Assembly (NCBI GenBank): GCA_905178155.1
Contig: CAJINV010000020.1
Location: forward strand, 310,001-374,000
Reading direction: 5' to 3'
DNA: 64,000 bases
Source of the DNA: Amoebophrya sp. A120
Lineage: Eukaryota; Protista; Dinoflagellata
Under the pieces are notes generated by a model. It did no database searches and was not told the origin of the DNA. It saw only the letters and a list, made by a program, of their open reading frames with translations. Within the stretch, counting starts at the first letter, position 1; every line of letters begins with the position of its first letter. Made by a program: the position numbers and the translations under genes. Below, one piece after another: positions 6,716-46,700 of the stretch.

Positions 6716-7308
6716 ATGTCATCTACCTCTTCGTCCACTCCGTCCAGCTCGAAACCCGGTAATAAAGCGGAGTCCACGTCCGCCGGCCTGGCTCGCATGC
6801 AGCAGCGGCAGATGCTTCGGCAAAGAAAGGCCGTTGGGCTGCCGCCGCTGGAAGCGCAGAACGTGCACAGTCGGGTGCAGCACCTGTTTAAGGAGAAGGA
6901 GCCACCGCAACTGTCGCTGGGGGAGCGCGGGTGTTATCCTCAGCGGGAAATAAGTCCACACTGACTTTATTTATTTCGGAGGCACGCAGTACAATTTCAA
7001 TGTGCATTCTCTCCGTGGTGTGTTCGCACATTAGCAGTGACAGCAGCACAATCAAGCCATCTGCTTGTCCCATTTTTTTACAGCACAACCATTGCCAAAA
7101 CACGACTGCAACTGCCTTTCATGGGGATGCGCATAACAAATTTTGCTGTAGACGCAAAGATGCATGACAGCCCTGGAGTCGTGGGGACGTTTTTCTTCAG
7201 GATAGGCGTCTGGGTATCATCATCCTTTTGGCGGTCGTGCCTATGGTGTGGACGCCACCCTTTATGGTCGACCTCGCCCGCATGCTCGACCAAGCGGTGG
7301 CGAGATAG
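6716..7308 (+). CDS. Small single-pass membrane protein, 2 exons (intron 6931-7205)
   Basis: MSSTSSS...LSLGERG joined across a GT-AG intron gives RLGIIILLAVVPMVWTPPFMVDLARMLDQAVAR*, which has a hydrophobic helix. Confidence 0.65.
6935..7204. mobile_element. Introner (TIR element) forming a GT-AG intron
   Basis: TATCCT...AGGATA imperfect TIR; flanking 5-mers GGTGT/GGCGT; internal GCATGACA motif. Confidence 0.7.
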
Positions 7309-7755
7309 TCGTGTATCTAGAACGGGCGTGCGCTCCACGGCTCGGCGTCGCGATGAATCCAAATGTGTAGATTTTGCAATTGCGTCAGGTCGTGGCTTCA
7401 ACATGATAAGCCACAAAAAACAATGAATAAAATGAAAGCGGCAGAGAACAAAAAGTTGAACAACTATCTACGGAAGAGACTGCGCGTCATGATCATCTCA
7501 GCGCAGATTCAGTGCGGAAGAAGCACAACCACTCGGGGTGTCTGTTCCACCTCGCTACAGCAATTTAGTACGCATCTGCTGCGCCCGCATGAATCAATGC
7601 TTTGAAATGACGCTTATCTCCTGCACTGCTTGGTGAGAAGAGCGACATCAATCTGTCTCTTCTTCCCCCGTAACAATGAAGCGACTACTTTCTCTACCCG
7701 GTATCCATTTCTTTCCCTTTGTCCACACCGTTGTTTCTCGCATAAGAATATTACC

Positions 7756-10611
7756 ATGGCACCATCATCATCATCATTCCCATGTTGTCGACTGTCCGTG
7801 GGTGTACTAGTACATCTCTTGGTTGCATCAACAAACTTGCTTGCTGCAAATGCTCTGGACACGGTCGAAGATTCGAGCTGGACCCTATCGCACGCCGCTT
7901 ACTCCACCCCGTGGGAACTAGGTGCCCGAAGTCGTCGCGGCCTCGCAGCTTTTGAGAAGTTAGTTTTATTGCGGCCCAGCATTGATGCAGTGGACTCTCC
8001 TGCCGGAACAGCTCCAGCAACCACAGAGGATGCAACCGATAAGAACAGCGCAGAAGCCTCCGCAGCTGGCACCACGCGCAGAGAGACCAGCACCTCCGAT
8101 AAAAATTTGCAGCACAACCAGAGGCCGGAGGGGGCCGGCATCTGCCCCCGCGGGGACGCGCTGCATCCGTTTTTCCTTGCGTCGAAGGACTACTACAGGA
8201 ACGCGACACTGACCACCGTGTCCGGCAAGACAGTCGATACCGCCGCGGAAATCTACCCTTTTTTTGCCTTGGTACTGGGTCTAGAGGACGTTGTAAATGT
8301 CCGGAAATGTGGGGTGAAAGCCGCGTCCTTCCTCGCTTTGGTGGCCCGGTCGCTGAAACAATTTGGCGGTTTCGACGCCGCGGAAGGAGTGTTGCGCGTG
8401 GCCGAGAGGATTGCGAAGGCAGCCTACGGGAAAAACGGCGCGTTCCATTTCTCCTATGACTGGCTTGCGATGCACGTCGGCACGGCTTCTAATCCTGTCG
8501 GTGGTGAGAGTGATGGAGTTCCACTTGAGACGAGCAACGGTGAAAGTAGTAGTCTTTCAACACCGGATCTCAACACACAACCACGACCGAATGAATCATT
8601 GCCTCCACGGAAACTGCAAATCGAGTCCGAGCTGGTGCACTTGCTCGGACTTGGGCTGGAGGTGTCTGCCGCGGGAACGGAGTACTACGACCCCCCGAAG
8701 CCGCCGGATGGAAGCCTGTACAACTGTTACTACGAACGGGCGGAGACTTTCCGTTACGGGCAAGTGCCCAGGTTCAAAGCGATTTCGTTGTACGGCGACA
8801 GTGGTGGGCCACCACTTCCTCCAAGTGGTAGCGAAGAAAAAACGCCACGAATTGGTGAAGCGCACGAGGCAGTAGGGAGCGGGGATAGTAGTACAACTGC
8901 AGCAAACGACCCCGACCAGCAAGCATTCTCTGACCAGGCCGTGCTCATCTCCGCGCTCGGCAAGATGGATCCCGCCTTTGCGGACGCGCGGCTGCGTCTC
9001 GTACTGGAACAGTCGACGGTCGGAAATAATCTTCGAAAAGCGTTCATTAGGTTCGGAAATGATCTTCTTCTGGACAGCACGGTTTCGAACGCCGATGTCG
9101 ACGACGAGCGGGGCAGAACTCCTGGCTGTCTATTCTCGCCTGCGAAGTTCGAGAAGTCGCAGCACCGCTGGGGGCGTGCAACCGCGGAGTTGCTGCATCT
9201 AGTGGAGAATACTAACGCTTTCAACGCGGGCGCGCTGCAGGGGCAGGAAGTGGAACCGGGAACAAATAACAAAAACCGGGCGATTCCATCCCTCCGCTCC
9301 ACGTGGCAGCGCGTCGAGGCTGTCCTCGGATTTGTCCACGACCTGCGACTTCGGGACAATGAGTCCCACGACTTTGAGGACTTTGCGCTTCGCGGCTGGG
9401 GGGCGGTTTGGTTCTCCGTGCTGGAGAAGCTGCAGAAAGATTTTCAGGAGTATCAAGGTCTACAACTTCGTAGCCCCGACGAGGGGGAACAACAATTGCA
9501 GTCGGGGAAGAGAAAAGTTGAGTCCTGCGGTGTGCAACTAGAGCGGCTTCTTTTCGATGATGCTAGTAGAACAGGAAGCGAGGAAAGAATTCGCACGAAC
9601 GACGACCCTCCAGAACAACTGTTCGACCAAGAAATGTACAGCTCGTGGCCCGCGACCGGGCGACACCCGGTAGACGCTCTGTACCGGGCCGTGGCGTACT
9701 GCGCACAGGAAGGGAACGACTGCCTCGTCCCGCTGGAGGTGTCGGCCACGGTGCTCGCGGGCGGACTGGGCGGATTCTGTCCGGAAGGCTGGACCGCGGC
9801 GTTCCTGAGCTTCGTGGAGCACGTGGTAACCGTGGTGCAGGAAGCGGAGGTCCGGAATTTATACCTCGACGTGCTGGAACTGCTGTCAAGAAACAATGAT
9901 GTAGGTGCGAAAAATAATAATAATCTTCATTATGATGTCAATCTTTTACCCCTCCTCCAAAAACTCGGACAAGCTTTGGCGGGGAGGGAGACCACCTCTA
10001 AGCCTGAGGATCATGCAGTTGACCTCTACAAATTGCTCCGCGACGGGCTGGAAGAGGTGTCGCGGCAGCTTCAGGTAGTAGCGGAATTCCACCACGAATC
10101 GAAGATGTCGGTTCCCTTTGATGCCAAAGAAGGCCCCGACTTTACGCGCGGCCCCAGAACAAGTGCAGAAGCGGCGGCAAGTAGAAACAACCTCCGCGGC
10201 CACAGCTTCCCAATTTCCCGAAATCTCACCGCGGACTGGCGGCAGGACGCGTTGCGACTGCGCGTGAACAAATTGCAGAAACGGTCGAGGAATGCGATGT
10301 TTTCTGATGCCGGCGACCATGTAGACAGCAACGGGGAGGTTGACAAGAACGAGAGCAATACACGAGACGGCCTTGATCAGCATCTACTTCTGCCTGTCCC
10401 CGCATTGGAAAAGCGACTCTCACGACTGCGGCCGAAAACGACTTCCCCCGTGTACCGAACCTGGGCGCGGTTCGACTTGCCGCGGTTGCTGCAAATTTTG
10501 CTGGAGCAATTTTCCGCGTTTTCCGCCCGGCAACTGTTCGCGTCCCCGTGGCCCATCCTGACCTACGCGGGCAGGCTGTTCCGCCTGTTGGCGGAGACGG
10601 TGCCGACGTAA
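7756..10611 (+). CDS. Large hypothetical protein with a putative signal peptide
   Basis: About 951-aa uninterrupted ORF from ATG 7756; hydrophobic N-terminus LSVGVLVHLLVASTNLLAANA. Confidence 0.8.
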   Translation: MAPSSSSFPCCRLSVGVLVHLLVASTNLLAANALDTVEDSSWTLSHAAYSTPWELGARSRRGLAAFEKLVLLRPSIDAVDSPAGTAPATTEDATDKNSAEASAAGTTRRETSTSDKNLQHNQRPEGAGICPRGDALHPFFLASKDYYRNATLTTVSGKTVDTAAEIYPFFALVLGLEDVVNVRKCGVKAASFLALVARSLKQFGGFDAAEGVLRVAERIAKAAYGKNGAFHFSYDWLAMHVGTASNPVGGESDGVPLETSNGESSSLSTPDLNTQPRPNESLPPRKLQIESELVHLLGLGLEVSAAGTEYYDPPKPPDGSLYNCYYERAETFRYGQVPRFKAISLYGDSGGPPLPPSGSEEKTPRIGEAHEAVGSGDSSTTAANDPDQQAFSDQAVLISALGKMDPAFADARLRLVLEQSTVGNNLRKAFIRFGNDLLLDSTVSNADVDDERGRTPGCLFSPAKFEKSQHRWGRATAELLHLVENTNAFNAGALQGQEVEPGTNNKNRAIPSLRSTWQRVEAVLGFVHDLRLRDNESHDFEDFALRGWGAVWFSVLEKLQKDFQEYQGLQLRSPDEGEQQLQSGKRKVESCGVQLERLLFDDASRTGSEERIRTNDDPPEQLFDQEMYSSWPATGRHPVDALYRAVAYCAQEGNDCLVPLEVSATVLAGGLGGFCPEGWTAAFLSFVEHVVTVVQEAEVRNLYLDVLELLSRNNDVGAKNNNNLHYDVNLLPLLQKLGQALAGRETTSKPEDHAVDLYKLLRDGLEEVSRQLQVVAEFHHESKMSVPFDAKEGPDFTRGPRTSAEAAASRNNLRGHSFPISRNLTADWRQDALRLRVNKLQKRSRNAMFSDAGDHVDSNGEVDKNESNTRDGLDQHLLLPVPALEKRLSRLRPKTTSPVYRTWARFDLPRLLQILLEQFSAFSARQLFASPWPILTYAGRLFRLLAETVPT

Positions 10612-11258
10612 TAGGTGAATGTCCAGGTAATTGTCTGCCGACGAGGTCGACAGAGACGGTGGGCACGTTGCGTCTTTGCCATGCTTCTAGAGGAAGATAA
10701 TTCTTGTCTTCGCCGTGACGACGAGATAGGAACACGACGAGCTCCTGTGTCGCGCGAGAAAACTGATTCCACTGCGTTGAAATTTGGGGCCCACTCTACT
10801 ACTGTAGCGATAGTGAGTGGAAAAAACACGATCTTCAACATAGTACGTGAGGACTGTGGTGCTGTGACAGTTGGTACCATAGATGAATTTGTAATCCTCA
10901 ACTACTCATCGATAAAAGTAGCAGCGCATCAACGGCAAGCAATTCCGGGTATTGTACTCAATTACGTCCAAATTCATTTTACACCTAGAGGAGCAGTCTA
11001 CATATCAACGACGTCGATGGTAAGAGGATTCTTTACAGTTTTGGTTTTATCGATTTATGCTGGCCGAGTAGGTGTTTCTCCTGAGAGCGGTGCCTCCCTG
11101 CTCGTTTCCTCCGGGTGGTCTGCGACATCATGTTCCACTTGATAGCAATATGTATAGCTAAAAACAGGTGTGAAGGATCCTCCTCCTCCTTTATCGATTT
11201 AAATTCAACGTGATAATATCTTCTTCACATTGCTGCTGGACAGCACGCTAAAAAAACC

Positions 11259-12003
11259 ATGGGAAAACAAGCGAGCGCCGCGCCGGGCAAAGCTGCAATG
11301 AAAAAAAGCGCAGCAAAGCCGGTAGGGAAGGAGCGATTGAAAAGCAAAAAATCCTCGTCGTCCTCGAGCTCCGCACCAGCTCCGACGAAAACTGGTACAA
11401 ATGCCAGTAAAAACGCAGCTCGTACTACGTCTTCCGCGTCTAGTGCAAAAAAAGATCCAGCACAGAAAAATACTACTATCCCCGGCGCCGTGGGCAATCT
11501 GATCGAGGCAAAAATGCGGGAAATGGTCACCAAGCGCGGCGCCGAAAAAACGTGCTGACCCTCGGAGATTCCGCGAGCGCTGTTTGCAAGTTCGGACTGG
11601 CGCGGCCTGATGGCGCAGACCCGCGACATCGCGGTCCGGCTGGCGAAGCAGGGCGTGCTTATGGATTGCAAATATGTCTGGGTCTGGAAACTTGTGATGC
11701 AAGTCCGTGAACAATAAAGTGCTCTGTAATGCGCCGCCAAGCATGACAAGTTTTTTCGTAATTCTGTGCTGCGTATTTCGCACGAAAAACTGCGCTTTTG
11801 CATGACAGGCAAGAGGACCTCTTGGTGGCGACGCAATACAGAGTGCAGAGTCATGCTAGACTAGCATGACAACTCTCGCAATCTTCCAGACCCAGACATT
11901 TTTGCACTTGATAGTGCTGACGATTGAACAAAAGGGAAAGCAGATCACGGTGGGAAACGCGGAGGAGATCAAGGGACCGGTGCGATTGCGGTCGAAGGTG
12001 TAA
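11259..12003 (+). CDS. DUF3253-family protein with an in-frame UGA (putative selenocysteine), 2 exons
   Basis: Reading through TGA 11556-11558 and removing the introner gives KRGAEKTC-U-PSEIPRAL..DWRGLMAQTRDIAVRLAKQGVLTIEQKGKQ...IKGPVRLRSKV*, matching DUF3253 motifs TxCPSE, WRxLM, QKG and GPIRL. Confidence 0.85.
11660..11913. mobile_element. Introner family A (254 bp)
   Basis: About 30-bp TIR (TGCAAATATGTCTGGGTCTGGAA / TTCCAGACCCAGACATTTTTGCA); perfect 5-bp TSD GTGCT. Confidence 0.95.
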
Positions 12004-12121
12004 AACTTTCTTTCATTAAAGTACTTGCGCAAGACAAGTTTAGAATTCGAAATCCAACTCATCTCGCAGCCGATCGGTTGTTCATACGGAGGTCTAGTCA
12101 GAGTCAGCTTTTAGTGTGATG

Positions 12122-12190
12122 CCTCGACATAATTTTGACGACAACTACCTCAACCATCGAAAGGTGCAGAGTCGAGATATGTCAACGAGG
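12122..12190 (+). promoter_or_regulatory. Candidate SECIS-like stem-loop in the 3' UTR
   Basis: CCTCG/CGAGG and GACATA/TATGTC outer helices; TGA-N13-AA-N22-GA spacing; CATC-GAAA-GGTG mini-helix. Helix II is imperfect and the first base is U rather than A. Confidence 0.45.
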
Positions 12191-13035
12191 TTGATTTTTT
12201 TTGCAGCGGAAATCGATGCAGGTGCAACTGATGGATTTTTGTTTGGATGAGTCTTTTCAGCTCGTGAACAGCGCGAATATGCTGGTCGGTTGCCCCGTGA
12301 AGAAATCGTAGTCATTTTGGATGGAAAACCACACGAGAAAACTCTCCTCATGCTTTGTTCGAGATGAACATAATATAATATTTCATCGAAAAGGAGCACA
12401 GACTCGAGGTGAGAGTTCTGTCCTGTTAATTTTTGATGACCTCGGATGTTGAGAGAATTTAGCTCAGCGCGCGTTCTCGGATAAGAAGGCAGACGAGCCC
12501 ACCGCACTTTCGGGAGAGAAGAGTGATAATTCGCAGAGATTTATTGATGGTTCTGCACCTATGAAAAAAACCAGCGGCCCCAATTTTTGTTTTCACGGTA
12601 GCAAGAAAAGCTTTGCTTTTGAGTTGATGTTTATGGACAAACAGTAGACATGTAGAAAGATATCCAATGGGTCGTCGTGTCGCGGGATGAAATGAACACG
12701 ACTTTTGAAATGTGTAGTATAGGATAACTAAGGTGGATTGACGTCTTCGTGAAGAACCTTCGTCGGGGGAGCTCTAGCGTAGTCGTTTGAAGATACAACT
12801 GTTGGTCGTAGTCGCGCAGAGTGAAGACAAACCATGACCTGTAATTTCGTTTCAAAAAACCTTCTAGGCCTTTTGAGAAGCTGCAGGTACGACAGCAGTA
12901 AGGAAGTCCATAGCAAGTAGGTATACTACGCTAATTGTGGTCTTTACGCCTGTGTCCGTTCCTTGTTTAAAAATGCATCCCCACTTGTATTAAAAACCTG
13001 TATCACAACATCAACATCTTACTAAAACTGCAAAA

Positions 13036-15218
13036 ATGCCTCTCGCCGGCTCCACGACGCCGCTCGCGTCGGTGTTCGCGAAGACGGTACGTTTCGCGGT
13101 GCGCGTCGGCGAAAAAGTTGCCGACTACCTGGAGCAGCAAGACGATCGCGACCAAGGAAGGGCCGCGGTGGAGGTGACATCAACTACAGAGACATCTTCG
13201 CGAAGTGGTAGTGGAATTTCTGGAGTAGAAGTTCCTCGTTCTGCAGCAGTAACGTGTGACCACAGCACGACGACCAGTACAACAACCGAGGAAATAAACG
13301 AGTGTAGCCGGACCACGAGCATTTCGACAGCTACCACAACGGCTACATCGCCGACGTCCGAGACCTCTCTCTCGACCTCTACTACTTTTGGAGACCTTGA
13401 CGTCTGCTTCTCCCAGCAAGAATGCGCGATCTGTCTCCGTTCTTTGGAAAAGGGCGCGCTGCTACGGACGCAGTGCGGACATTGGTACCACGCAGCCTGC
13501 GGGATGCAAGCCTGGCAGCGCCGGCCGCTTTGTCCGCTCTGTCGGGAACCGATAGATTGCGTTGCCGACAGTGTTGACACGTGCACGCCGGTCACGTTTG
13601 AGGATCTTTGCAGCGCAGGCAACTACTGCACCGGGGACCGGACTTCACAGAACAGTGTGGCGGCGAGACCGTATCTATGTTTTGCTTGGCTTTTTTTGCA
13701 TGAAGTAAGTAGTCTTTGCATAATGATCAATTTTGGTTCCGAATCAATTAGATCAAGGGTACTTGTTCTTAAAGCCATAGCGAAGAACGTCCGATAAAAA
13801 AAACACAGATCCTTCCCGACAAATCCCGCGGATTACTTTGCCGGTTCGGATTCCGACGCATTGCGGCGTGTTTCGCAGGCCATCACACGCCTAAGCCTCG
13901 TGGACAATGCGCTTGCAGTGCGGCCTCGCGACGCTGGGGGGGCATCGTATTCGTTTGATTCATTTTTTTTTTGGTGCTAGTATGATGTATGTTAGGAGGT
14001 AGCCAGTTTCATCCACCATGTTTTCGGTTTCCTCGATACAAGGCTGGCTTTGAATGATTATGATCCCAAATAGTTTATTTTGAACAATAAAGCTGCCATT
14101 CTGAAATCAGTCGTTCTCCCGGCGACGACGCCACGTCCGGCACCCCGACCGGCGAGGAACGGCAGCGGCAGCAAGACGAATCCGTCCGTGGCATCCTCAA
14201 CACCGTGCCCATAGATCCGCACGTGCTGGCCCGGATGCGGCGCGAGAACCGCAGACTCGGAACGCAGCCGGCTTTTTCCAGCATGCTGCGCGGCGGGGTC
14301 GAAAATAACGCTCACGGTCATTCGCGCGCACCGTCCACGGGCTGCATTTACGCCGATCTGTTCCTCGCGGACTTGGGAATCTGGTCTAATTTGAACTACA
14401 GCAGCGCGAACAATGCAAATGCTTCGTCCTCCTCTAGTAGCAGCACGGCGGCAGCCCTGTCGACGAGCCCGTCGGTCACGGACCTGAACACGATGGTGGA
14501 ACAAGGATCTTCAAACCCGAATTCACCCACTACGACTTTTCGACGGGGGGAACAAAGACCGGAAGTGACGGACACAGCAGCCACAGCACCTTCAACATTA
14601 TTCTCCACCACGACTTCTGGTAGCGCCACCTCTACCTCCACCAGCAGAGATGATTCCTCGCCCACAAGTAGGTTGCAGCAGAACCTGAACCGCGCAGCGA
14701 ATCTTCCGACAGCTAACACTACGACAAATTCCACCTCCACCAGTGCCACCACCGCGGAGGAGCTTTTGGAAAACGGGACGTTGAACCTACCACCTCTCAC
14801 CGAGTACCAGCACTCGCTGCTCCGCGGCGTGTGCCTCGTGCAGCTGATCGACGAGCTGTTTCAGTACGCGTCGGTCGGGCACTACGAGGCGGTGTCCGCG
14901 ATTTTGAGCAGTGGGTTTGTGGACGTGAAGTCCGCGAAGGACGTCTGTGGCAACACGATCCTGCACTTCGCGCGGAACCTGGACATTGTGAAGCTGTGTG
15001 TCGAAACCTACCACGCCGACGTAAACGCGGTAAACGACGCGGTGTGGAGTCCGCTGCACTGGGCCGCGGAATGCGAAAACCCCGCCTTGTGTTGGACGCT
15101 GCTCCAGTACGGCGCAGACCCGACGGTGTATACGAATTGCTCCAGGACCGCCAGGGATCTCGCCACCTCCGACGCCGTGCGGTCCGTCTTCGACTCCTTC
15201 TCCTCGCGGTCGGCGTGA
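13036..15218 (+). CDS. RING-H2 zinc finger plus C-terminal ankyrin-repeat protein (putative E3 ligase), 3 exons
   Basis: CAIC...CGHWYHAAC...CPLC; ankyrin motifs GNTILHFA and WSPLHWAA; exons 13036-13670, 13809-13946 and 14111-15218 joined by phase-compatible GT-AG introns. Confidence 0.8.
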
Positions 15219-16610
15219 AGGTCAGAACTGTGGATGGATTTAGAATAAGGTGTATGCGTCTCTGTGAATTTCTCCTGTCCCCACTCTAGTAAGTACTACA
15301 CGCCCACCTACTTATACGACAGTGAATACCAAGATTACAACCACCTGCAGCACCACCCTTCTACGAGTATCAGCCCCTTTTATTTAGCACCATCGAAAAA
15401 AAGCCGCTTAGGATGTTTGACCTTTTGCAATTTTGAAAAGTCTCGGATAAGATAGATACACCCTTGTTTAATATTCTGTTTCGAACTGTAAAAATGTCGC
15501 AAGTGTACAGACCCGCAATGTGATGTGGAATCTATGCTGGCAACTTAAAATATAAAAAGTCTACCCCAGTAGTTGACGGCTCTGTGAATCTTGATCTTTG
15601 ATCGTAAGCCTGAATGACTGGCGGTGAAAACGAGCAAGAAAGATTCCCAAGAAACATTTTCCTAGGAAGTGTTTCCAGTTTTGAATTTTGGTTTGTTTCT
15701 GATTTAGTACCGAGCAATGATGCTAAAAGTTGAAAACAACAGCTTTATTGCCAATAACAATTAAGGACGGCACGAAAATGAGCAGAACTGGCACTGTAAT
15801 GCGTAAGCTGATAGCGGAGCTACGGATATCTGAACTAGGTGGTTTAAAGAACTTTCTTCAGCTTATGACTTTCCTGAAGTTTCGAGTTATTCAGCACACA
15901 CTGGTGTGAGTATGATTCTCTACGTATTGACTTCACTCAAAAACATACGTAGCAAATCGGTTCTTGCACAACTGTTGGTTTTTGCAGCGTCTGGGCGCAA
16001 CATCCAACAGAAAAGGGAAATCCGCCACTGCTGCTTCTTTCTGAAGAGGTATCCGTTGGACTGGAAAGTATTGAGTGCGCTAGTGGACAAATTCAGCATC
16101 GCCGGCCTTCGGAAACAAGGGAAGGACTGAACTAGCGCCACCCGAGCTTTTTTTTCGATGATCTCTTTACTCGTTTTCTTGGACACCAATATGATAATCC
16201 CACGCCCGTATGAGTTTTCAAATGACGCTGTCAATGTCAGTTTTGACCGAAAAAAATAAATTCCTGATAGAGATGAAAAAGGCCTGAAGCAACCACAAAA
16301 ATCGTGGAGCTACAGCGTGCTTCCGATACAGTAAGTAGACCACGGGTGCACCTGCTGAAGCCACTGCGTGCTCCCGCGTTCCCGCCTGTCTTTAACTTGC
16401 CGAGAGAGTAGCGAGGTCGTTCGTGTATCGCTCGTGCGAATGAATTTTTGAGAGTCTTGAGTGAACAAGTTCAAGTAGAGATGTTTGCTCATGGTTGTGT
16501 TCTTTTGTGGCGCATTTTACTGCATTTTAGTACAACGCTAAAGACTGCAGCATTACCATTACTCGCAAATTATTGGAAGCATCTCGACCGCGTCTCCACA
16601 CTCCAAAACC

Positions 16611-19114
16611 ATGCCTCCCTGCTTCCAGCAGAGCGACTTCGCCCGCATGACGGGAGCTGAGCTGGCCGCGGTCCTGGCCGGCCACGGCAAGTCGGTGGCG
16701 AACCCGCGGGCGAGCAAGCAGACACTGATCGAAAAGTTAGTCAAGATTGAGGAGGTCACGGAGCGCGGCCTGATGCACGACGCCATGACGCGAACCGGGT
16801 TGATGAACTTGCTGGAGGGGATGGGGAACCACTCCTCTTCGAATCAAGTGTTTTCCCGGGGCATGCTATGCAATACAAATTTCCCGTACATGTATGAAAT
16901 GCATGACAAATTTTGCTAGCTTAGAGTGTCCAAATTTTCATGCTGACTACGATTGAAGGCAAGTTTTGTCATGCAGAAACAGCATTCATACGTGTGCGGG
17001 AGATTTGGATTTCCTGTGGATACATGCTGGCGACGCGGGTCATCTCCACACTGAACAAGCGGGCCCGGCTATCCAAGAAAAAAAACGTTGTTAGTGTGAA
17101 TTTGTAATGCGCAAGAACATGCAAGATAATTACGTCTGTCATGCTTGGCATGGATTGTAGGGTCCAGTAAAGGGCGTTTTCACATCCTCTCTGCGCATGA
17201 CAGGTTTTTGCTGTCATGCCAGACAGATTTGTAATGCTGTTCCTCCAAAAAAGTTACACCTACAATGTTTTTTTCTTGGATACCGCCAGGAAGAAAAGAA
17301 AAAACTGGAAAAGCAAAAGGCAATCGAAAAAGCGAAAGTAAAGGAGCAAAAAGAAGCGGCAAAGGCGGAGGCGGCAGCGGCCAAAGTCGCGAAAGCGAAG
17401 GAGAAAGCGGAGAGGAAATTGGCGGGAAGTAGTAGCAAAGCGGTTCTTGTTGTTCCGGTGAATACGAAGATGACTGCGCAGCAGGCCGGCGCTCTTCCAA
17501 AAATTGCAGGGCCTGCCGCGAAGATAGTAAATCCGGACGATCCAATGCAGCAGCTGCGAAACCAACCCGCAGCGCCATCGCAGATGAATGCAGGATCTAG
17601 TTTATCTAAAGCTGATTCTAAGCCGAGCCGCGCTGTCCAACAACCTACTGTCGCTAGTAGAAGTGCAACTACTTCTGTGTCTGTTCTCGCTCCTGCTGTT
17701 GCTGCCTCGGCGAAAGACAGCGAAAGAACCGACCCGGCGTTGCGGTACCCGGGGTTGCCGAAGGACTGCAAGGATAAATTCCAAATCAACGTGTATTTTC
17801 GCGAAAAGTGGAGCAAGTATCCCTACGTGAAAGACGACTCGGTGAAATTCGTAACCGAAGCCGACACGCAGCTGGTCCGACACATCCCAGAACTCCAGTA
17901 CCAGACCGCGTTCCTCCCCTTGGAACACGAAATCAAAAAGGTGCGCAAGCAGTTGCAAGGGGGCACGCAGGAGGTGCTGATTCTTATTTGCGATCTTTTT
18001 TTTCGTTCGTCGGGCTTAGTTATTACGTTGCTCTATCTAAGCGAGATTTTGATGATTGTGCAGCATCGAAAAAAAAAAAATCCATCAGGTGCATACCGAG
18101 ATTATGAAGCGGCTCCACGATGTTGAAAATTTACCGGAAGCGGAGAAGAAGAAGTCCTGCGAGGGCTCCTTGGTCACTTCATGGGAAGATTTCTTCTACG
18201 GCGGCACCTCCATTTTTCATCTCACGGCGAATTCCTTCAAGGTGGTGTGGCACAACCACGGCGGCATTCTGTACTGTTGGTACCACCACAAAGCGCACCA
18301 ACAGTTCTGGTCGCAGTTCAGCATGAAGGAGCGGAAGCAGGAGTCGGACCTGGTCTGGCAACGGTGGATGGAGTTGTTCGAGAAGGAATTGTTCGTCCCC
18401 ATGGCGCAGAGACTGACCACGCATGTGCAAAAGTATTTGCAGAAGAAGCAGAAACTCGTGGCAACGGTGGACGCGCGGAAAAAACAGATCGAGCAGCAAA
18501 AAATGCTGTTGGAAGAGAAGCGGATCATGCAGGAAAAAATGGAGCAGAAAAAGCGGGAAGAGGAGAAACTTCTTGCCGCACGGATGTTGAAAAAGCAGGA
18601 AGAAGAATTGCTGTCAAAGAAAAAACAAGCCGAGCAATTACAATTAGAGGCGGAGCGCGAGAAGAACGCCACTACGGTCGAAGAACAACGGGGTGCGGAA
18701 ACTACGGGGCGGATGCAAGCTACAACTGGCGAAGGAGCCACCGCGAACGGCGGTGCTGCCGCGGAACTGAAGAGCGCCGCGGGAAAGAACAAGATGAAAC
18801 CGACTGAAGAAGAAGTGATCAATCTCGTGTCCTCTGATTCCAGTAAGTCGTCCTCCGTCGCCGTCGTCGTGGAAGTTGTCGATAAGAAAGTAGTGGAACA
18901 GCAAGCAGTTATCAACGAGAGCGCGACAGAGGTGCTCGATGATGCAAAGGCCGTCGTGGTATCAGGAACTGTCCCGGCGGTGTCGGACGGGGAATTGGTG
19001 AAAGGAAAAAGACCTGCCTCCGTAGGAGCCGTGCAGGAAGCAGAGTTTGTAGCCTCTGGGGAGCAGGACAGTTCGCTAAAAAAACGGAAGATTGAGGAAC
19101 TGGAACAGTTGTAA
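16611..19114 (+). CDS. Hypothetical coiled-coil, Lys/Glu-rich protein, 4 exons
   Basis: Frame continuous after removing introners 16867-17022 and 17070-17282 (SRGMLATRVISTLNKRARQEEKKK) and GT-AG intron 17974-18088. Confidence 0.75.
16867..17022. mobile_element. Introner (156 bp)
   Basis: TAT...ATA ends; TIR core CAAATTTCCCGTACATGTATGAA / TTCATACGTGTGCGGGAGATTTG; TSD CATGC. Confidence 0.85.
17070..17282. mobile_element. Introner family D (213 bp)
   Basis: TIR TATCCAAGAAAAAAA / TTTTTTCTTGGATA; TSD CCGGC/CCGCC; reverse-complement homologue at 59217-59425. Confidence 0.9.
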
Positions 19115-20222
19115 GCAGCTGGTATGAATTGCAGAATGAGAGACGGTTAATGTTAAAGCTGTTAGCAACTTCAGATTTATTTTTCGCTCGAAAGTTTCTA
19201 GTACATTACAGAGCTAGGTTTGTAAACTCCGCTGTGATCTAAATTTGTATCCTTCGTATGAAGCAAAAAAAAAGGAGAAACCGACACTGCCACAGAAAGA
19301 AACTCACCGCAGATGATGTCGTGCTTCTTTTGCGCAAGAAGTTAGTACTTCCTTGAAAATATTGACTATGCAAAAGAGACGGATCCTGAGTACATGTGTT
19401 TTTTCTCCCAAGCAACAGAGGTAGAAACTGTCCGCTAAGACATGACATGATTGTTCCTGAACGAGCAAATAGCGCAAAGACCCACCACTCTCTCACACAG
19501 AAAAGGATCCAATTAGTACATGATGGCTACATACCGCTTCTATGAGAAACGCGAATCAATCTCGATTTCAATTACGCAAGCACTGTGCACAGCGTGGCGG
19601 TGATCAGCGATCCATTTTTATCAAGAATCCAATCACTTCCCACAACTGCGAGCAACATTTTTGATACAATCTCCACCACATGCAACTACACACCAGGGCA
19701 CCTAGAAGTGAGTGAGGTTTTTTCATTCGCTTTTTCGCGCTTTTGTTTTGTTTCCCTTTTACTTCACATCAAACACCATCAATTTTCGCGACATATTTAG
19801 CATTCCTAAGTATAGAAAATTTTTGTGAAGTGGAAAGAAGCACATTAGTGCTAACATAGCCTAGAGAAAGATCTGCTGCAGCGTTTCTCGTTGAGCAGCG
19901 CGGCAATTGCTCGCAGATCTCCATATCTTTCCTGCGTTTCAACAACAAACGGCATCGAGACTTTTCAAAATTTTGAAAAACACCTTATTTTTGCCGTGCG
20001 CAAGTTGCACCGCGGCACTAATAGCAAACCCCTTTCCATATTACCCTGGCGACAACGCCGTCCGGTCTAATTAGCTGTGAACGTAGAATTTTCTACTAGC
20101 ATAGGAGTAGGAAATTCATCTAGATTCCATTTTGGAACTAAAATAAACCCTTCCTACTGTCGTCTTTTCACTGTATTATCCAAAGACAAAGACCGTAAGA
20201 ACTTTTTCCACGAACAACGAAG

Positions 20223-23161
20223 ATGGGAGGCTTCCGATTCTTGTCGCTGATTAAGCCCGTCATGGTGCTGCTGCCGGAGGTGGCGCAGCCGGACCGACGG
20301 ATCCCGTTTAAGGAAAAGCTGCTGTGGACCTCGATTTCCCTCTTCGTTTTCCTGGTGTGCTCACAAATACCGCTGTACGGAATCATGTCCTCCAAGCTGA
20401 GCGATCCCCTCTACTGGATGCGAGTACTATACTTACGACTGTTTGATGTTGCAACAGTGTGTTTGGAGCTATTTCTCGCGTCGTGCTTTGGTTAGTACCT
20501 ACGGTGTCTCACGCAAGAGCTGCAACAGCACGTCCACGTGCACGGCGCCGCGCGCGGAGGTGTTGCAGCAGTACCATAATATGTACGCGCGAGAAGCAAC
20601 GAAAAGGGGATGGACAAAATGTCCTCGTCGCACCGATGTACTGTGGTTTCAAAACGTGAAAATAAACCCAACTGTAATATAGGTACTTATGGCTTCAAAC
20701 CGTGGGTCTTTGATGGAGCTGGGTATTTCGCCGATCGTGACTTCCTCTATGGTGATGCAGTTGCTCGCGGGTTCAAAAATTATTGACGTGGACCAGACCC
20801 TCCGCGAGGACCGAAATTTGTTCAACGGCGCACAGAAATTGTTCGCTCTGCTGATCACCTTCGGAGAAGCAACAGCGTACTGATTTACTACTGTTTTTTT
20901 GCCTGCTTCAAAACCAACAAATGTTATGTACGTGCTGCTTTATTATTATTTTCCGGTATGTACAACGGGGCTGCGTCTGCGTTCCACGTGAAAAATGAAT
21001 TCCAAATAATCAGATACGTGCTTTCTGGGATGTACGGGGATGTCCGCGAGCTTGGTGGTGGCAACTCCATTCTGATCATCATCCAGCTTTTCTTCGCCGG
21101 CGTCGTGGTGCTTCTGCTGGACGAGCTTTTGCAAAAGGGCTACGGTCTGGGCAGCGGAATTTCGCTCTTTATTGCAACCAACATTTGCGAGGCGATTGTG
21201 TGGAAAACCTTCTCCCCGACAACCATCAACACCGGAAAGGGAACCGAGTTCGAAGGTAGGGGTTATGTGGATAAATTGGGTTTTCTTTGGCTTGCAGAAA
21301 TAAAACAAAGAGTGGCGTGCTACGTCTATCTTCGATCATGCAAGAACGGGGGTTCCTTCCGGGCATCGTGCTGTTGATTGAAAATGTCTTCAGGTAGGAA
21401 ACGATTGTTCTCTACAACTATTACTATCAGGTGCTATCGTTGCGCTGTTCCACCTGGTTTTTTCGAGGTCCGACAAATTCCAGGCAGTCAGGGAAGCCTT
21501 CTACCGACAGTCTGCACCAAATCTGACCAACGTGTTTGCAACCGTTCTGGTCTTCCTGATTGTCATTTACTTCCAAGGTAAGCACACGGAAAATCTTCTT
21601 TCTTGAAAAAGAAATCGAATGCGGATGTCGAAAAATGTGTCATGCAGACCTCCGATGGTATTTTCTCTTTGTGTAGCACCAAATAAGCGCATGACAAATA
21701 AATGCACTAGCCCGTACAACGACCACTACAGGCTTCCGCGTCGATCTCGCGGTGAAGTACCAGAAGGTGCGCGGACAGCAGGGCAGCTACCCGATTAAGT
21801 TGTTCTACACGTCCAACATTCCAATCATCCTGCAAACCGCTTTGGTCTCCAACCTGTACTTCTTCTCCCAGCTGCTGTACCGCCGATGGAAGAGCAACAT
21901 GCTGGTATAGTGAAGTGTGCATGACATATCGGATACTTTGTTGACGGTTTTGAATCACAAATATGCAGCATTAGACCACACGGAGATGAAACGGAACAGT
22001 CAAAATTATGCTCTGCATGGTAGTGTTCCGCATGAGAAACCTGTTTTGCTTTACTGTTTGTGCATGACAAAACAACAGGTCAACCTCCTCGGACAGTGGC
22101 AGGACCTGGACTACGGCGGTCAGTCTATCCCGGTCGGAGGCCTCGCTTACTACATCTCCCCGCCTAACAGCTTCTCCGACATCTGGGTACTACAAACTTT
22201 TTTTCTGTGCATGATCACCAGCCGGTCCGTGCATGGCAGATGTACTATGAGCTTTCCAGTGTAGAAGTTCATTGCATGACAAACACGCAAGCACCGCATT
22301 TCTGTTTAGCATGACAAACGCGCCGCAAGACCATTTGGCTACTTCCTATACATCCTACAAATTCATCACCGCCGGTCAATTACATAAAAAAACAGGTCGA
22401 TCCCATCCACGCTCTGTTCTACATCTCCTTCGTGCTGTGCAGTTGCGCTCTGTTCTCTAAGACCTGGATCGAGATCTCCGGCAGCATATGCATTGCAAAT
22501 ATGTCTGGGTCCGGAACAAGCTTGTGATGCTAAAGTATGGATGAGGCTTGTGCTTTCAAGTACAGCCGAGCATGACAAAATTACTTGACACCGTCTGTTG
22601 CTATGTAGCACGCATCACAAACTGCGTCTTTGCAAAAGTAAACGCTTTTGCTGGCTAGGCAACACAGATTTGTCACAGGAATGCTAGACATGCAACACAA
22701 GTTCTTGCACTGTTCCAGACACAGACGTGTTTGCATTCGATACAGCAGCCCCCGTGACGTCGCCAAACAGCTCCGCGACCAGCAGCTCTTGTTTAAGGGG
22801 TACAGGGAAACCAGTCTTATCAGCGTGCTGAACCAGGTAAGGATTTTTTTTCCTGTGGTTGGCGCATCGGAATTTTCTATCTGGGGTAACATCAGATGCA
22901 AAAACTTTCCTTTTTCATCTTGTTATGCCTGTTGCGCTGTAAATTTACATGTTCAACATCACTCCCCACACCGAAAATTCTAAACAGTACATCCCGACCG
23001 CGGCTGCCTTCGGTGGTATGTGCATTGGTATGCTGACCGTGGTGGCGGACTTCTTGGGCGCGATTGGCTCCGGGACCGGTATCCTGCTCGCGGTCACCAT
23101 TGTGTACAACTACTTTGAGCTCGTCTACAAGGAAAAGGAACAGGGCAACTTGCTGTTCTAA
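20223..23161 (+). CDS. SEC61A: Protein translocon subunit Sec61 alpha, 9 exons
   Basis: [86 protein letters not shown]; introns 20424-20682, 20877-21013, 21256-21430, 21578-21731, 21905-22078, 22187-22395, an introner at 22487, and 22837-22987. Confidence 0.98.
20428..20681. mobile_element. Degenerate introner forming GT-AG intron 1 of Sec61 alpha
   Basis: 254 bp; TATACTTAC...GTAATATA ends; flanking 5-mers AGTAC/GGTAC. Confidence 0.55.
22487..22742. mobile_element. Introner family A in Sec61 alpha (non-canonical intron)
   Basis: TIR ..TGCAAATATGTCTGGGTCCGGAACA / TGTTCCAGACACAGACGTGTTTGCA..; TSD CAGCA; removal restores the conserved [13 protein letters not shown]. Confidence 0.95.
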
Positions 23162-24695: not shown

Positions 24696-25918
24696 ATGTC
24701 TTCGCGCGCCGTGCATTTCTGGATGGTGGCCGCCGCAGTCTCCTTGAAGCTGCGCAAAGACGCCCCCGGAGCTGTCCGTGGAGGTGAAGTTGCACACGGA
24801 CCAGGCGACAGTAGCGGTATGACCCCGGTGAGGTCGCCGGATGTGACCTATGCTCCGTCTGCGGTTGGCGCTGGTACCTACTCTGAGGCCGGATCCGTCG
24901 CTGCAAGCTCTGCGGATCGGGCCGCCAGCATGATCAGTTCGCTGATGGCCAACTCGGGGGCAGCCGGGTCTTCTACGCCGGAAGCGTCCGTTGCAGGGTC
25001 GGCTGGCGACGCTGCGAACGACGACCGGATCAAGGACATTGAACGGGACCTGATTGCTGGCGCAGATATCACAGACAAAAATGCCTGCCGGAACAACAGG
25101 TTGTCATGTAAAAAATCAACAAAAGATTCCAAATCATGCATTCGCTCCACCGACCACACTTTACTCTGCAGCACCGAACGTATTGCATGAAAGATTGTGA
25201 ACTGTGGTGGCACTTTTGCCTGTGATATTGCAGGCCTTCGACAAATCCGCTAGCGTCGGAGAAACACCGGAGCAGCGGGAGTTGCACAATGCGGTGAAAG
25301 CGGCTCTGGTCAGCTCGCCGACGAAGCTCGGGTCCTATCCGGTTGCAGGTGCGAGTGCGGGCGCAGCTTCCTTTCTTGGCGTAGTGCACGGCAAGTTGTC
25401 CCTAACCAAAATGGCTAGCATCGCAACCAGCGTGGCCAAAGCTGCAGAAGCCCACGTCGTGTCGGGAAGAGCCAATGCGCAGTGCGACCAGTGTATCATC
25501 GGAAGAAAAAAATGTTGTCTTGAAACGGGAAGGAATGTATGCTGCGTTGCTGGGTTCGCGACCCAGAAGTGCATTCTTTTTCTTCGCGAAACGAAACAAA
25601 TGGTGAAAAATAAAGGGCTGTTAGTACTTACCATAACGAAGTTTCCATAGGTGCATGGCAAAACCAAAATATCCATAGATGCATGGCAAAAAATGCTGTT
25701 TCAAAATACAACAAATTTTTTTCAACCCGATACCGTCCTGCCAGCCGAACTTCAGCACGTGTCCGCAAGGGTGGGAATCTCGCCGGGACGGCTCCTGCAC
25801 GCACCCTTCCAGCTACACGGGCTATTGCAACAAGCCGCTGCGCCCGGCAGACTTCGCTGCCGCGGCGCTTGAGGAGTTTGAGGTCTACTGCAGCGCGTGC
25901 TTTCCCTGCTCAGCTTGA
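24696..25918 (+). CDS. CPW-WPC domain protein, 3 exons
   Basis: C-terminal CQPNFSTCPQGW...SCTHPSSYTGYC...FEVYCSACFPC; possible signal peptide; two TIR-bounded introns. Confidence 0.8.
25066..25228. mobile_element. TIR element within intron 1 of the CPW-WPC gene (likely GC-AG intron about 25062-25233)
   Basis: 20-bp TIR ATATCACAGACAAAAATGCC / GGCACTTTTGCCTGTGATAT. Confidence 0.75.
25494..25732. mobile_element. Introner (239 bp)
   Basis: TATC...GATA ends; TIR AAAAAAATGTTGTCTTGAAAC / GTTTCAAAATACAACAAATTTTTTT; degenerate TSD CAGTG/CCGTC; frame restored (CDPSCQP). Confidence 0.75.
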
Positions 25919-26249: not shown

Positions 26250-26312
26250 CCCGTGCTCTTCCTGAAGAGTTTCGCACTCCCTCCCAAAAAAATTGTATCG
26301 CGCGTCTTCGCT
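26250..26312. repeat. About 64-bp dispersed direct repeat, copy 2
   Basis: Near-identical to 24178-24241. Confidence 0.85.
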
Positions 26313-43763: not shown

Positions 43764-46700
43764 ATGAAATCATTGGCACCGCCAACGATGTCGGTGATTT
43801 TTCCCTGGTCCTCCGACCGGGTCACACTTGATGTCCTCCGGTTGTTCATCGCCCTCCACACCGCTCTCTACTTCTTCCCCACTCTCGTCAAAGCGAGGAC
43901 CTTCCCGGATCGGTCGCAAAGCACGAGCGGGCGGGAGTTTCTCCTTCCCCCGGGGGCCGGGGTCCCGTTCGTCGAGAGCCAGAACCCCTTGGCGCGGACC
44001 GCGTTACCCTGGAACGAGGGGACGTACATGTCCCGGTACGTATGCAGCGACTTTTTGTCACCTGGCCGTGCCGTGGAAACTGAAAGTGTCGCTGAGCAGG
44101 CGCAGGCCTGCGGGCTCCTGCTGGCCAGAAACTTTACGGTGAAGGTTCATGAGAACAATGTAGATCGTGCTCCCGCCTCTGCTCCTGCAAGCAACGATGT
44201 TCAACATCTGGATGAAGTAAAAAAAGCTGTTCTAGGAAGGTCAAGTACCGGCTGGACTCGATCCCTTTCGGACGACAGCACCGCGCCTTCAGAAGTAGAA
44301 CAGCACGTGGGTCGCGACGTCTTCGCAAGCGATAACTCTGGCGGTGCTCCTGGTGGAGCATCCTCGTCTTCGCAGAACAACCCTAAAGCAGAATTGTTTT
44401 CATCTTCACTGCAAGAAGTCGTGCAAAAACAAGCAACAGCCTCCGAGAACAAATATCACCTCGATGATCTCGACTTCTACGCCGCCGCAAGCCAGCATGA
44501 TGCTGCAACTATGAGAAACACCTCTGACGACTTTGACTGCTGTTGGGCGAATGAAGTACTGGATCGCGCTCGAGCTACTCTTGGAGATGGGTATAGAAAT
44601 CACGATCCTTTATTTCAGAGTGATGTTTGCAGGAACGTCACGCGAGAGGGGGACCTACATCTGTCGCGGGGATTTGACACGGACCCCAACGTCGATGTAG
44701 TTCAGAGCCTGTTATGCTCCCAGTGGAAGCAGGTGCAGCGGTACTGCGTGGACCATTATGGGGAAGATTTGGACCTGGACAGCATCAAATGCAAAAATGT
44801 CTGGGTCTGGAACAAAGCAACTTGTCATGCTAATAGTCTGAATCATGTAAAAATTTGTGTTGCATGATTACCAAAAGCTGTCCACTTTTGACCTAATCGA
44901 GAGGCAGCTTCTCATGCAGGATTGGCATGAGAGAACTCTCACAGAATCTATCATGCTATGTCCTACATACCAGACCTCATGGGTCATGGAAAACCTGCAT
45001 GACAAGTCTGGCACTCTTCCAGACCCAGACACTTTGACATTTGATAGGGTCCGATGGCAGTGCCGCGGAGGAAAAGGAGCAGTATCAAAAGGAAAAATCC
45101 CCCCTCCCCATATCAGAAGGAAGTTTCTGATGCTGGATTTGCGTAGACAAATCAGCTTTGTATTGCAGAGAGGCACTGCGGGCAGATCTCCGGGCTAGAT
45201 AGGGGCGTATGTGTCTAGTTGTTCAGCATGGCAAACGGCTGCCCTTTAGGCCCAACAGCATGACAGATCGCCTCTATAATGGGGCGGAAGCTCGTCCGGT
45301 GGGGAGCTACCTCCCCACCTCCCCCCAGCACTGGGGAGGTACCTCCCCACCCTAGGAAGGCACCTCCCCACACATGGGGAGGCACCTCCCCAGGGTGGGG
45401 AGGTGGGGAGGTGATACGTGGGGAGGTGATTCACACCATAACCAAAAGTATCGTACTCGTAGTAATTGCAGTCATGCATGACAAGTCTGGTTCCTCAGCT
45501 TATTCAGCATTACAAATTCCATTTTTCCTTCTGGAAAAATTTGTAATGCTATTTTTACTAGTGGTGTTCAACGTCGTGTTCGAGCATACTATAACCACTG
45601 CGTGGACCATTATGGGGAAGATTCATCAAATGCAAATATGTGGTCTGGGCCGGGAAGATTGCAACTTGTGATGCTGCATTTAGATTCCAAAAAAATCTGT
45701 ATTGCATGAGCAGCAAAGGGAGTGCAATTTTTGCTACGCGGAGAGGGCATTTGTCATGTGGAATAGGCATCAAGAAGCCCTCAAAAAATCTGTGACGCTA
45801 GGGCATGCGTCACAGACTTCATGGCTCATGCAAAACGTGCATCAGAATCTTCCAGACCCAGACATATTTGCAATGCATAAGATTTGAACCTGGACAACAT
45901 CAACGCGAGCAGTGACGAGCACCCCGGGAAGCAAGAGGTCGCAGGGTCGGGTGTCGGTGCTGATGTGAAGAGGTTCTCCATTTTCACTCCGAGAACGAAT
46001 TATTCTACTTCGGGAACAGCTGCTGCGGTTGTTCACGAAAAAGACGGAGCAGCGTCGCAAGAAGGGTGTACAGTAGAACCACCAGGAGAACCGAATTCTA
46101 GCAACTACTCGGATCATCATCATCATCATCATCGTCCTGCTGGTTTTCAGTACAGACCTTTTAGCACCACGAAAACCACGGAAGATCCAGACGGGCGAAA
46201 TCGCCCACCTTTGCTGTCTTCAACAGATGAGCTCGACAAGACGTGTTCATCTAAAAGCTCGTGCAATCTTCGGGAAACTCCGGAACTCCAGCTTTCTTCC
46301 GCTAGCACGGCGTCCACGTTGAGCAGTAGCTCAAGAAACAACTACAACTCGCTATTCACGGGGGCCAATCATTACGTTGAGCCGCCGATACTAGTAGCAC
46401 GAGGGAAGGCGCAAGCGCATGAAGACACAACTCTAGGAGGGTTGTCCCCATTAGCCCTGCCGCCGAGAGGAGGAAGCGCGACGCCCGCTGCGATTATTTC
46501 GGTGCCACATTTCCGTCTGGACGACGTAGACGACGAAGACGATGAGGATGATGTCAGCCAGGCAGATTCCTGCGACACCATCACCTTTATGCTCGACCGA
46601 GAAGAGGACGGAGAACCACTGTGCGATGAGGAGGCGCAGCGCGACGTGTCAAGAAGTGCTGATAACCTCAGAACTTCTCAGATGCGCATGCGTCACATGG

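Follow-up and report, generated by a model that had tools for sequence, protein, structure and literature searches.

The introners of Amoebophrya sp. A120, a dinoflagellate that lives as a parasite, raise a simple question: at which letters is an intron cut that has no GT-AG ends? The window analysed here is a stretch of 64,000 nucleotides from this host, three of its exons being 100% identical to named A120 proteins. Introners with TAT…ATA ends and 5-nt repeats have already been published for A120 (Farhat et al. 2021, PMC7789003). About 65% of the A120 introns are non-canonical, and the describing paper left the position of their border open: it terms the splice sites of the introners variable (figure 3 legend) and the border unknown. 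According to the text of the same paper, the repeat layout of the introners also occurs in 15% of the canonical introns, the gene models were made from transcript alignments after standard tools had failed, almost the full set of spliceosomal proteins is present, and no U1 snRNA was detected.

Elements of the window recur as families (D2 to D8, together with the pair 17116/59217 at 90% identity), and one 23-nt element end was found at 129 loci. Joints in RNA contigs show that the elements are spliced out without GT-AG; they have no AG and no fixed base at either end. The young elements have inverted repeats with a TAT start of 15 bp (17070), 8 bp (25067), 9 bp (36506) and 19 bp (59847), the published range being 8–20 nt starting with TAT. 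The inverted ends at 6935 (6 bp) and at 17974, 20424 and 20877 (4–5 bp) are shorter than this, and two of these start with TGAT. The TAT…ATA motif is not strict, since the element at 44783 starts with CAT and the one at 61281 ends with AGA. Direct 5-mer repeats are found at the borders of the elements; they are absent at 25067 and 44783, yet both of these are spliced.

We give each cut as an offset from the left end of the element. The register 1/4 denotes an intron that begins 1 nt ahead of TAT and ends 4 nt past ATA; the first-pass annotation of this DNA had proposed the register 4/1, with cuts 4 nt upstream and 1 nt downstream of the inverted ends. Nine elements are informative, six by RNA and three by transcript-based gene models. 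The register 1/4 fits all nine and 4/1 none of them, and the removed length equals the element plus 5 nt in 16 of the 16 elements examined. The mRNA retains bases 1–4 of the left repeat and base 5 of the right one. That the cuts lie at a fixed offset from the inverted ends, as had been proposed, holds up; the offset itself, however, mirrors the proposed one, and left bases 2–4, which 4/1 would remove, are retained.

Among the six RNA cases, all on the plus strand, the introner at 17069..17286 (ends 17070–17282, repeats CCGGC/CCGCC) is removed at the joint 17068>17287 in contigs of X1, X3 and X4, which allows the offsets -1 and 0; left base 4 is kept and the codon reads CGG, not the CGC expected at 17066. 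The introner at 25066..25231 (ends 25067–25227) has flanks, GCAGA and TTGCA, that match at 1 of 5 positions, and it too is removed together with 5 nt (three runs have the joint 25065>25232; offsets -1/0). At 25493..25736 (ends 25494–25732, CAGTG/CCGTC) an introner lies in a gene with a CPW-WPC domain (Pfam). Its joint 25490>25735 is present in contigs of three runs and in 428 raw X9 reads with 62 starts, allows -3 to -1 and gives D-Q-S-C instead of the D-P-S-C forecast at 25489. The remaining three junctions are represented by one X3 contig each, with a depth of 9–13: 58989..59199 (ends 58990–59195, CTCTT/CTTTC; joint 58988>59426 with 12 letters between), where base 3 on the left and base 5 on the right are kept; 59478..59747 (ends 59479–59743, GCCGG/GACGG; joint 59475>59746), where the mRNA reads W-P-V and not W-T-V as predicted at 59474; and 60777..60961 (ends 60778–60957, CGCTG/CGTTC; joint 60775>60961), the counterpart of 58990 in a duplicated exon set. 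They allow -2/-1, -3 to +1 and -2/-1, respectively, and the sole offset common to the six RNA joints is -1. Residues of the A25 orthologue match the left copy at two sites (P-L at 58990, W-P-A at 59479).

Three plus-strand junctions come from gene models. The introner at 6934..7208 (inverted ends 6935–7204, repeats GGTGT/GGCGT) lies in a two-exon gene (6716..7308) for the 105-aa protein CAD7971900.1 of Amoebophrya sp. A120, which has no Pfam family; the annotated protein reads G-C-L, which allows donor offsets of -2 to 0 and excludes -4. The junction of the introner at 44782..45050 (ends 44783–45046), which starts with CATC and has the unrelated flanks GACAG/GGGTC, was called in advance as 1/4. 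The annotated protein P0007 (D-T-D) gave exactly that, one of six registers, and -1/+4 was the sole solution in a free junction search. A composite intron at 45082..45900 starts 1 nt before the TAT at 45083, ends 4 nt after a look-alike of GGATA (GGACA, recognized by eye) and holds the element 45624–45879; here as well the donor offset -1 is the sole solution against P0007. The two junctions that pin -1 by themselves (44783, 45083) are thus annotation and not RNA. A match at 1 of 5 flank positions leaves the cut unchanged, and the repeat is dispensable. Six further introners with perfect repeats, at 16866..17026 (plus strand), 22486–22746, 57708–57873, 59846–60118, 61280–61441 and 62941–63197, are slidable and each loses the element plus 5 nt.

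The sample is small and comes from a single window. Raw reads over the window were mostly from the CPW-WPC gene in X9, numbered 0 in X10 and 3 in X11, and support one junction only; contigs drop minor isoforms. Five of 15 joints were set aside as cross-mapping between repeat copies, with 21–24 letters on the short side (59731>62949, 61311>61414, 61339>63164, 62959>63163 and 63007>63163). An insertion-free DNA strain is ruled out as source of the joints, as GT-AG introns are skipped in these contigs, too. Minus-strand genes are likewise ruled out as the cause of the mirror register, as the plus strand carries the spliced frames, the GT-AG introns and also the annotated proteins.

How is such a cut made? 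We lean towards the view that the 1/4 cut at the nine junctions is the work of a spliceosome which reads the element's own ends and requires neither GT-AG nor the target-site repeat. The offset of 1 nt would place TAT at intron positions +2 to +4, where canonical donors carry TA. Since 11 of the 12 canonical donors in the window read GTA (four of 12 GTAT), the element likely provides a donor whose first base is free. The 3′ cut would be measured from the ATA end, and the first A of this end, at -7, could serve as branch point. Under such a 1+4 ruler, any transposon that has these ends and makes a 5-nt duplication would leave the gene exactly restored, and this would account for its insertion into coding sequence without site preference.

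The same junction data, with no AG and no fixed end base, would also fit a fixed 1/4 cut made by a nuclease and a ligase on paired ends, as is suspected for the nonconventional introns of euglenids. In Euglena, introns carry paired motifs at set distances from both ends and are released as circles (PMC12501133, PMC11282704), and the undetected U1 snRNA of A120 (PMC7789003) points the same way. On the other hand, TAT falls on the letter positions of a canonical donor, and the fold of the region 6920–7220 is no more stable than those of its shuffled versions (z = 0.05). Moreover, flanking bases lengthen the helix by one pair at 25067, 25494 and 60778 and not at 17070 or 58990. As 25067 and 58990 cannot be reconciled with any one spacing measured from the end of the helix, the anchor appears to be the TAT/ATA letters, which the offsets track. 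We therefore regard a non-spliceosomal cut as unlikely, if still worth serious consideration.

That the register is fixed we infer from the overlap of the allowed offsets. Alternatively, the cut might differ among elements within the repeat, as the legend in PMC7789003 states, and the overlap at 1/4 would be luck. Most single elements indeed allow two to five offsets, 20877 (see below) is cut at 4/1, and by RNA alone a common register arises by chance in 2.4% of cases (six elements) or in 5.8% when the paralogous pair is counted once. However, with the annotated junctions included random offsets give a common register in 0.25% of trials (eight elements), or 0.6% without the paralogue; the advance call at 44783 hit one of six registers, 45083 again has donor -1, and the placement of slidable junctions by an aligner could itself mimic variability. 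We consider a variable cut quite improbable. The published Table S4 has T at +2 in nine of the nine commonest non-canonical end pairs; it leaves the register undecided because eight of these also have A at -2, as expected of the mirror image of 1/4.

The model of the first-pass annotation, a 4/1 cut with GT-AG arising by point mutation of intronic repeat bases, is compatible with 17974 and 20424, matches the 4/1 cut at 20877 and is in line with the excess of short 4/1 stems in GT-AG introns described below, but its register is excluded in all nine informative TAT-type elements, its three named residues failed and the copies show none of the predicted enrichment, so that we give it hardly any credence. 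The copies in question come from another assembly: among 53 oriented copies GT stands at left bases 2–3 in four, G at right base 1 in 14 and both in none, and no oriented copy of the TAT family (0/53) has GT-AG in any register. The perfect 5-mer repeat is kept in 95 of 110 copies there. A codon model for the exonic repeat copy, applied to four oriented mismatched copies of that assembly, gave two without amino-acid change and two with small, opposing score differences.

What, then, are the four GT-AG spans that had suggested this model? Their 5-mer pairs, GT and AG letters and short inverted ends (stems of 6, 4, 4 and 5 bp) are present at 6931–7205, 17974–18088, 20424–20682 and 20877–21013, and RNA contigs, with joints drawn from 15 of 23, remove the latter three. 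The intron at 17974..18088 (plus strand; GT-AG, perfect repeat, 4-bp TGAT/ATCA stem) is slidable, the joint 17971>18087 leaving 6 letters that fit either side. Two of the spans lie in the Sec61-alpha gene (20223..23161, plus strand), which is recognized by Plug_translocon and SecY on two exons and by its joints, its end being read off the sequence. Intron 1 (20424..20682, GT-AG, TATA/TATA ends; joint 20423>20683, offsets -4 to +1) fits both 4/1 and 1/4; like 17974–18088 it slides over 6–7 positions, and both registers give the same mRNA. Intron 2 (20877..21013, GT-AG; joint 20876>21014, three runs) does not slide; it has a 5-bp TGATT/AATCA stem in 4/1, lacks the TAT start and is cut at 4/1. 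As GT-AG introns, then, 20877–21013 is pinned, 17974–18088 and 20424–20682 are possible, and 6931–7205 is contradicted by the annotation: G-C-L requires a left repeat base which a GT-AG cut would delete, and hence, going by the annotated protein, its GT-AG is not in use. In an A25 homologue of the 105-aa protein (weak, E = 2e-4) an F is aligned to the C of G-C-L. The supposed series from introner to GT-AG intron thus loses its first member, and the mere presence of a GT-AG pair at 6931 is likely not enough for its use.

The earlier observation that the repeat mismatches are just the bases creating GT or AG seems partly built in, since positions 1–3 of the 5-mers are fixed by picking GT-AG spans. 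Twelve GT-AG introns were verified by RNA, a 13th joint being excluded because it shares a donor; three of the twelve have a stem of at least 4 bp in 4/1 (donor/acceptor permutation mean 0.75, p = 0.009), in a post hoc test whose three positives are the very introns that had been proposed. Repeats matching at 4–5 of 5 positions occur in two of the 12, as expected by chance (mean 1.58, p = 0.50). The bare DNA pattern was found six times on the plus strand against a mean of 2.85 (range 1–5) in 20 shuffles, and two of the six are not introns by RNA.

With 1/4 in use, point mutation alone would not turn an introner into a GT-AG intron, because left bases 2–3 are exonic and a 3-nt slide of both sites is required as well. 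Such a slide would take place inside the repeat and would be silent while the repeat is perfect. It is nearly an even question whether 17974, 20424 and 20877 are relics slid in this way. Alternatively, they do not descend from the TAT family. They could belong to an older class marked by a GTNC duplication of 4 nt and an element-borne AG, like the introner-like elements of Symbiodinium, which is possible but unlikely, or be ordinary introns with chance stems, which is somewhat less likely again. Two of the three start with TGAT and not TAT, left base 1 equals the G of AG in one of three and a C pairs with that G in all three, the two TGAT donors pair with foreign acceptors in 6 of 132 swapped pairs, and the 4-nt pattern is known from Symbiodinium (10.1101/2020.10.14.339549, PMC9860276). 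Against this, 20424 carries TAT…ATA ends like the young family, and 15% of the canonical A120 introns have the repeat layout (PMC7789003).

The fixed register likely shows how A120 removes introns without GT-AG signals. It yields exact intron ends as a basis for searches for branch points, snRNA pairing and circles and for minigenes in the style of Euglena; the 1/4 rule would let gene finders model such introns and fix codons at mismatched repeats. In this genome, finding a GT-AG pair at an introner does not prove that splicing is canonical, which touches the published figure of 15%. More tentatively, we suggest one rule for the tens of thousands of transposon-born introns of A120. A ruler on the TAT/ATA ends would cut at -1/+4, ignoring in-frame GT-AG and needing no repeat; the inverted repeat would serve both as donor (N-UAU) and as branch signal (GAUA, A at -7) of a spliceosome that has no U1 snRNA. 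Wherever it lands, any element with such ends and a 5-nt duplication would then be a perfect intron, and a pair of stray ends could splice a captured piece of exon into a new gene.

The elements themselves, their TAT inverted ends, border repeats of 3–5 nt and removal without GT-AG, are those of PMC7789003 from the same organism. In the literature text searched, which does not extend to the figures of PMC7789003, we found no 1/4 register, repeat independence or donor-like placement of TAT, and the text seen of PMC12787238 and PMC11453091 holds nothing on the register. Whereas the text of PMC7789003 speaks of variable sites, here 1/4 fits nine junctions and the repeat is dispensable; a sentence of that paper about where the repeat lies can be read in more than one way, and its figures may show part of this.

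The nonconventional and "intermediate" introns of euglenids (PMC12501133, PMC4770533) resemble A120 in several ways: each cut lies at a fixed distance from one of two paired motifs, slidable borders are settled via non-slidable cases, a MITE-like origin is proposed and there is a debate on conversion to GT-AG. Their motif is CAG at +4 to +6 and CTG at -8 to -6, whereas A120 has TAT at +2 to +4 and ATA at -7 to -5, and the lineage is unrelated. Excision as circles is established in euglenids; A120 is likened to them by end geometry alone. Thus, the A120 elements are euglenid-like in geometry and not members of the euglenid class. With the introners of Symbiodinium, Polarella and Aureococcus (10.1101/2020.10.14.339549, PMC9860276) they share terminal inverted repeats and a target-site duplication that become an intron with one border inside the duplication; in class 12 of Polarella the duplication measures 5 nt, as in A120, and there is more than one register. 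In these species GH/AG sites come from the duplication or the element, whereas the TAT family of A120 needs none (0/53), so that a splice-site origin of the Symbiodinium/Aureococcus type is possible solely for the three GT-AG introns. The non-canonical introns of Fritillaria borealis are likewise derived from transposons with terminal inverted repeats and target-site duplications and, according to a review (PMC11282704), are removed by an adapted U2 spliceosome; their end letters are fixed (AG-AC, AG-AT), whereas in A120 the first and last letters are free.

Three exons of the window are 100% identical to named proteins of Amoebophrya sp. A120, and the window contains many elements of 150-270 nt, bounded by inverted TAT…ATA ends and flanked by 5-nt repeats, which are the introner elements described by Farhat et al. 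2021 (PMC7789003). The accessible part of that paper already covers the elements as well as the repeats at their borders, and finds them in 15% of the canonical A120 introns; it further reports gene models derived from transcript alignments and a host which has kept nearly all spliceosomal proteins and in which U1 snRNA was undetected. We presumed that the contig runs stem from RNA and treated the contigs as spliced transcripts, since several GT-AG introns are exactly skipped within single contigs.

The first-pass annotation had proposed that introners are cut 4 nt upstream of TAT and 1 nt downstream of ATA (-4/+1, intron start/intron end) and had predicted a CGC codon at 17066, D-P-S-C at 25489 and W-T-V at 59474. 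The RNA reads differently at all three forward-strand elements. At introner 17070 the joint 17068>17287 (three contig runs; offsets -1/+4 or 0/+5) retains the left G and gives CGG. At introner 25494 the joint 25490>25735 (428 raw reads with 62 starts in addition to three contig runs; offsets -3/+2 to -1/+4) gives D-Q-S-C, and at introner 59479 the joint 59475>59746 in one X3 contig gives W-P-V, with W-P-A in the A25 orthologue. RNA junctions across three further forward-strand introners allow start offsets of -1 or 0 (25067, whose flanks match at one of five positions) and of -2 or -1 (the paralogous positions 58990 and 60778). The sole offset common to all six informative RNA junctions is -1/+4; a common offset arises by chance in 2.4% of trials, or in 5.8% if the paralogues count once.

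A sharper test was fixed beforehand on element 44783-45046, whose flanks are unrelated, so that D-T-D results from -1/+4 only. In the annotated protein the stretch is D-L-D-T-D-G-S, and a free search of junction pairs returned -1/+4 as the single solution. The next junction of this gene is also unique and starts 1 nt before the TAT at 45083; we read its right anchor as a GGATA look-alike with the intron ending 4 nt past it. Including the element 6935-7204, -1/+4 is compatible with nine of nine informative elements. In all 16 elements compared the element plus 5 nt is removed, six of them being non-discriminating with their perfect repeats. A fixed cut offset from the inverted ends was the right kind of rule, read in the wrong direction. 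The corrected rule is consistent, though from a small sample, and we regard the fixed -1/+4 register as such as quite probable.

The same locus harbours a composite insertion (44782-45900) in which a 37-nt segment (45047-45083) that duplicates part of an exon of another gene (39746-39782) is flanked by two introner ends; 31 nt of it (45051-45081) form a mini-exon of the annotated protein. The block further comprises a G/C-rich inverted repeat (45308-45416) and a 27-nt duplication (44743-44769 = 45597-45623). It looks like exon capture via introner ends.

Neither GT-AG nor a repeat is required for the removal of TAT…ATA introners. The ruler appears to be anchored on the TAT/ATA letters rather than on the helix end, since flank bases lengthen the helix at 25067, 25494 and 60778, with no such extension at 17070 and 58990. 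With an intron start at -1, TAT occupies intron positions +2 to +4, and 11 of the 12 canonical donors in the window start with GTA. In Table S4 of PMC7789003, as far as that source was available, all nine commonest non-canonical end pairs of A120 have T at +2; the table is not decisive because eight of them also have A at -2. We lean slightly towards a relaxed spliceosome, which would accept N-UAU as donor and set the 3' cut by the distance from the ATA end; conceivably, the A at -7 could serve as branch point. A non-spliceosomal cut in the same register, for which the fixed-distance paired code of Euglena offers an analogue, is a less likely but serious alternative. That offsets vary from element to element, in line with the variability stated in a figure legend of PMC7789003, is improbable, as a common offset among the eight elements with defined ends arises by chance in 0.25% of trials (0.6% without the paralogue). 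The -4/+1 register, compatible with none of the nine informative elements, is highly implausible.

The four GT-AG spans from which that register had been derived do exist in the window sequence, with their 5-mer pairs and stems of 6, 4, 4 and 5 bp (6931-7205, 17974-18088, 20424-20682 and 20877-21013). RNA contigs skip the last three; only 20877-21013 is non-slidable, whereas 17974-18088 and 20424-20682 give identical mRNA in 6-7 registers. The span 6931-7205, judged by annotation as its joint is not among the 15 of 23 RNA joints listed, is contradicted: the NCBI protein reads E-R-G-C-L where the GT-AG cut would yield G-R-L. This C most likely derives from a transcript, since the A120 models are transcript-based and R would be expected from a tool that seeks GT-AG. 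Of 12 GT-AG introns verified by RNA, three have stems of at least 4 bp in the -4/+1 register (mean of 0.75 under permutation; p=0.009 in this post hoc test), and 5-mer matches are at chance level (2/12, p=0.50).

Point mutation at left bases 2-3 had been suggested as the route to canonical introns. These bases are exonic in -1/+4 and therefore cannot mutate freely to GT; right base 1 is intronic in both registers. A canonical intron at -4/+1 would instead require that the target already read NGTNN, that right base 1 be a G and that both sites slide by 3 nt, a shift that should be silent as long as the repeat is intact. The intron at 20424 fits this path, as does that at 20877 provided that its second mismatch arose later as a synonymous change; at 6931 the GT-AG pair is present and, by annotation, no slide has occurred. 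A 4-nt GTNC duplication plus an element with its own AG, by analogy with Symbiodinium, would explain 17974, 20424 and 20877 as well, and their stems may be chance.

From another assembly, one 23-nt end motif, which favours young copies, retrieved at least 129 loci. The matches listed yielded 111 delimited elements (110 of them distinct, and 95 with a perfect 5-mer), of which a codon model oriented 53. Among these 53, GT stands at left 2-3 in four and G at right 1 in 14; the two never occur together, and no copy shows GT-AG in any register. The suggested enrichment is absent among them. Two copies in GGTNN duplications (L077, L084) carry a mutation-free -4/+1 GT-AG pair on one strand. In another copy (L054) the right 5-mer lies one base off relative to the left one.

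Several other features were observed. The DUF3431 gene has two tandem-duplicated 3' exon sets (58933-60362 and 60721-61562), both joined to donor 58703 in X3 contigs, at depths of 9.2 and 7.6. Only the second set appears in the NCBI model, and the first more closely resembles the A25 orthologue in the stretch around R-A-I-H-Y-Y-D. Between introners 58990 and 59217, a micro-exon of some 16 nt (59200-59215) is correctly spliced in. X9 reads are confined almost wholly to the CPW-WPC gene (25458-26400); 365 carry a loose end ahead of 25458, presumably a template-switch adaptor, and a second letter set at 25947-26198 in about half of the X9 reads suggests a paralogue elsewhere. In one X1 contig a loose end of 10 letters, which we take to be the terminal part of the spliced leader of dinoflagellates, precedes 12573, a possible trans-splice site of the gene 13037-15218. 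Three GC-rich copies of family D9 (4546-5092; 89-nt core, spacing 224-234 nt) lie outside any identified gene, and an identical 212-nt pair flanking a gap of 633 N (790-1846) is probably an assembly artefact.

A fixed register for Amoebophrya is not stated in the available portions of the non-subscription literature searched, which included PMC12130899, PMC9860276, PMC11282704, PMC12501133, PMC12787238 and PMC11453091. Going by the accessible text of these sources, Symbiodinium introners have a 4-nt duplication and an AG brought by the element (10.1101/2020.10.14.339549, PMC9860276), the conversion to GT-AG is likewise debated for the intermediate introns of euglenids (PMC4770533), and the -1/+4 register finds its closest analogue in the paired code of Euglena with its fixed distances (PMC12501133).
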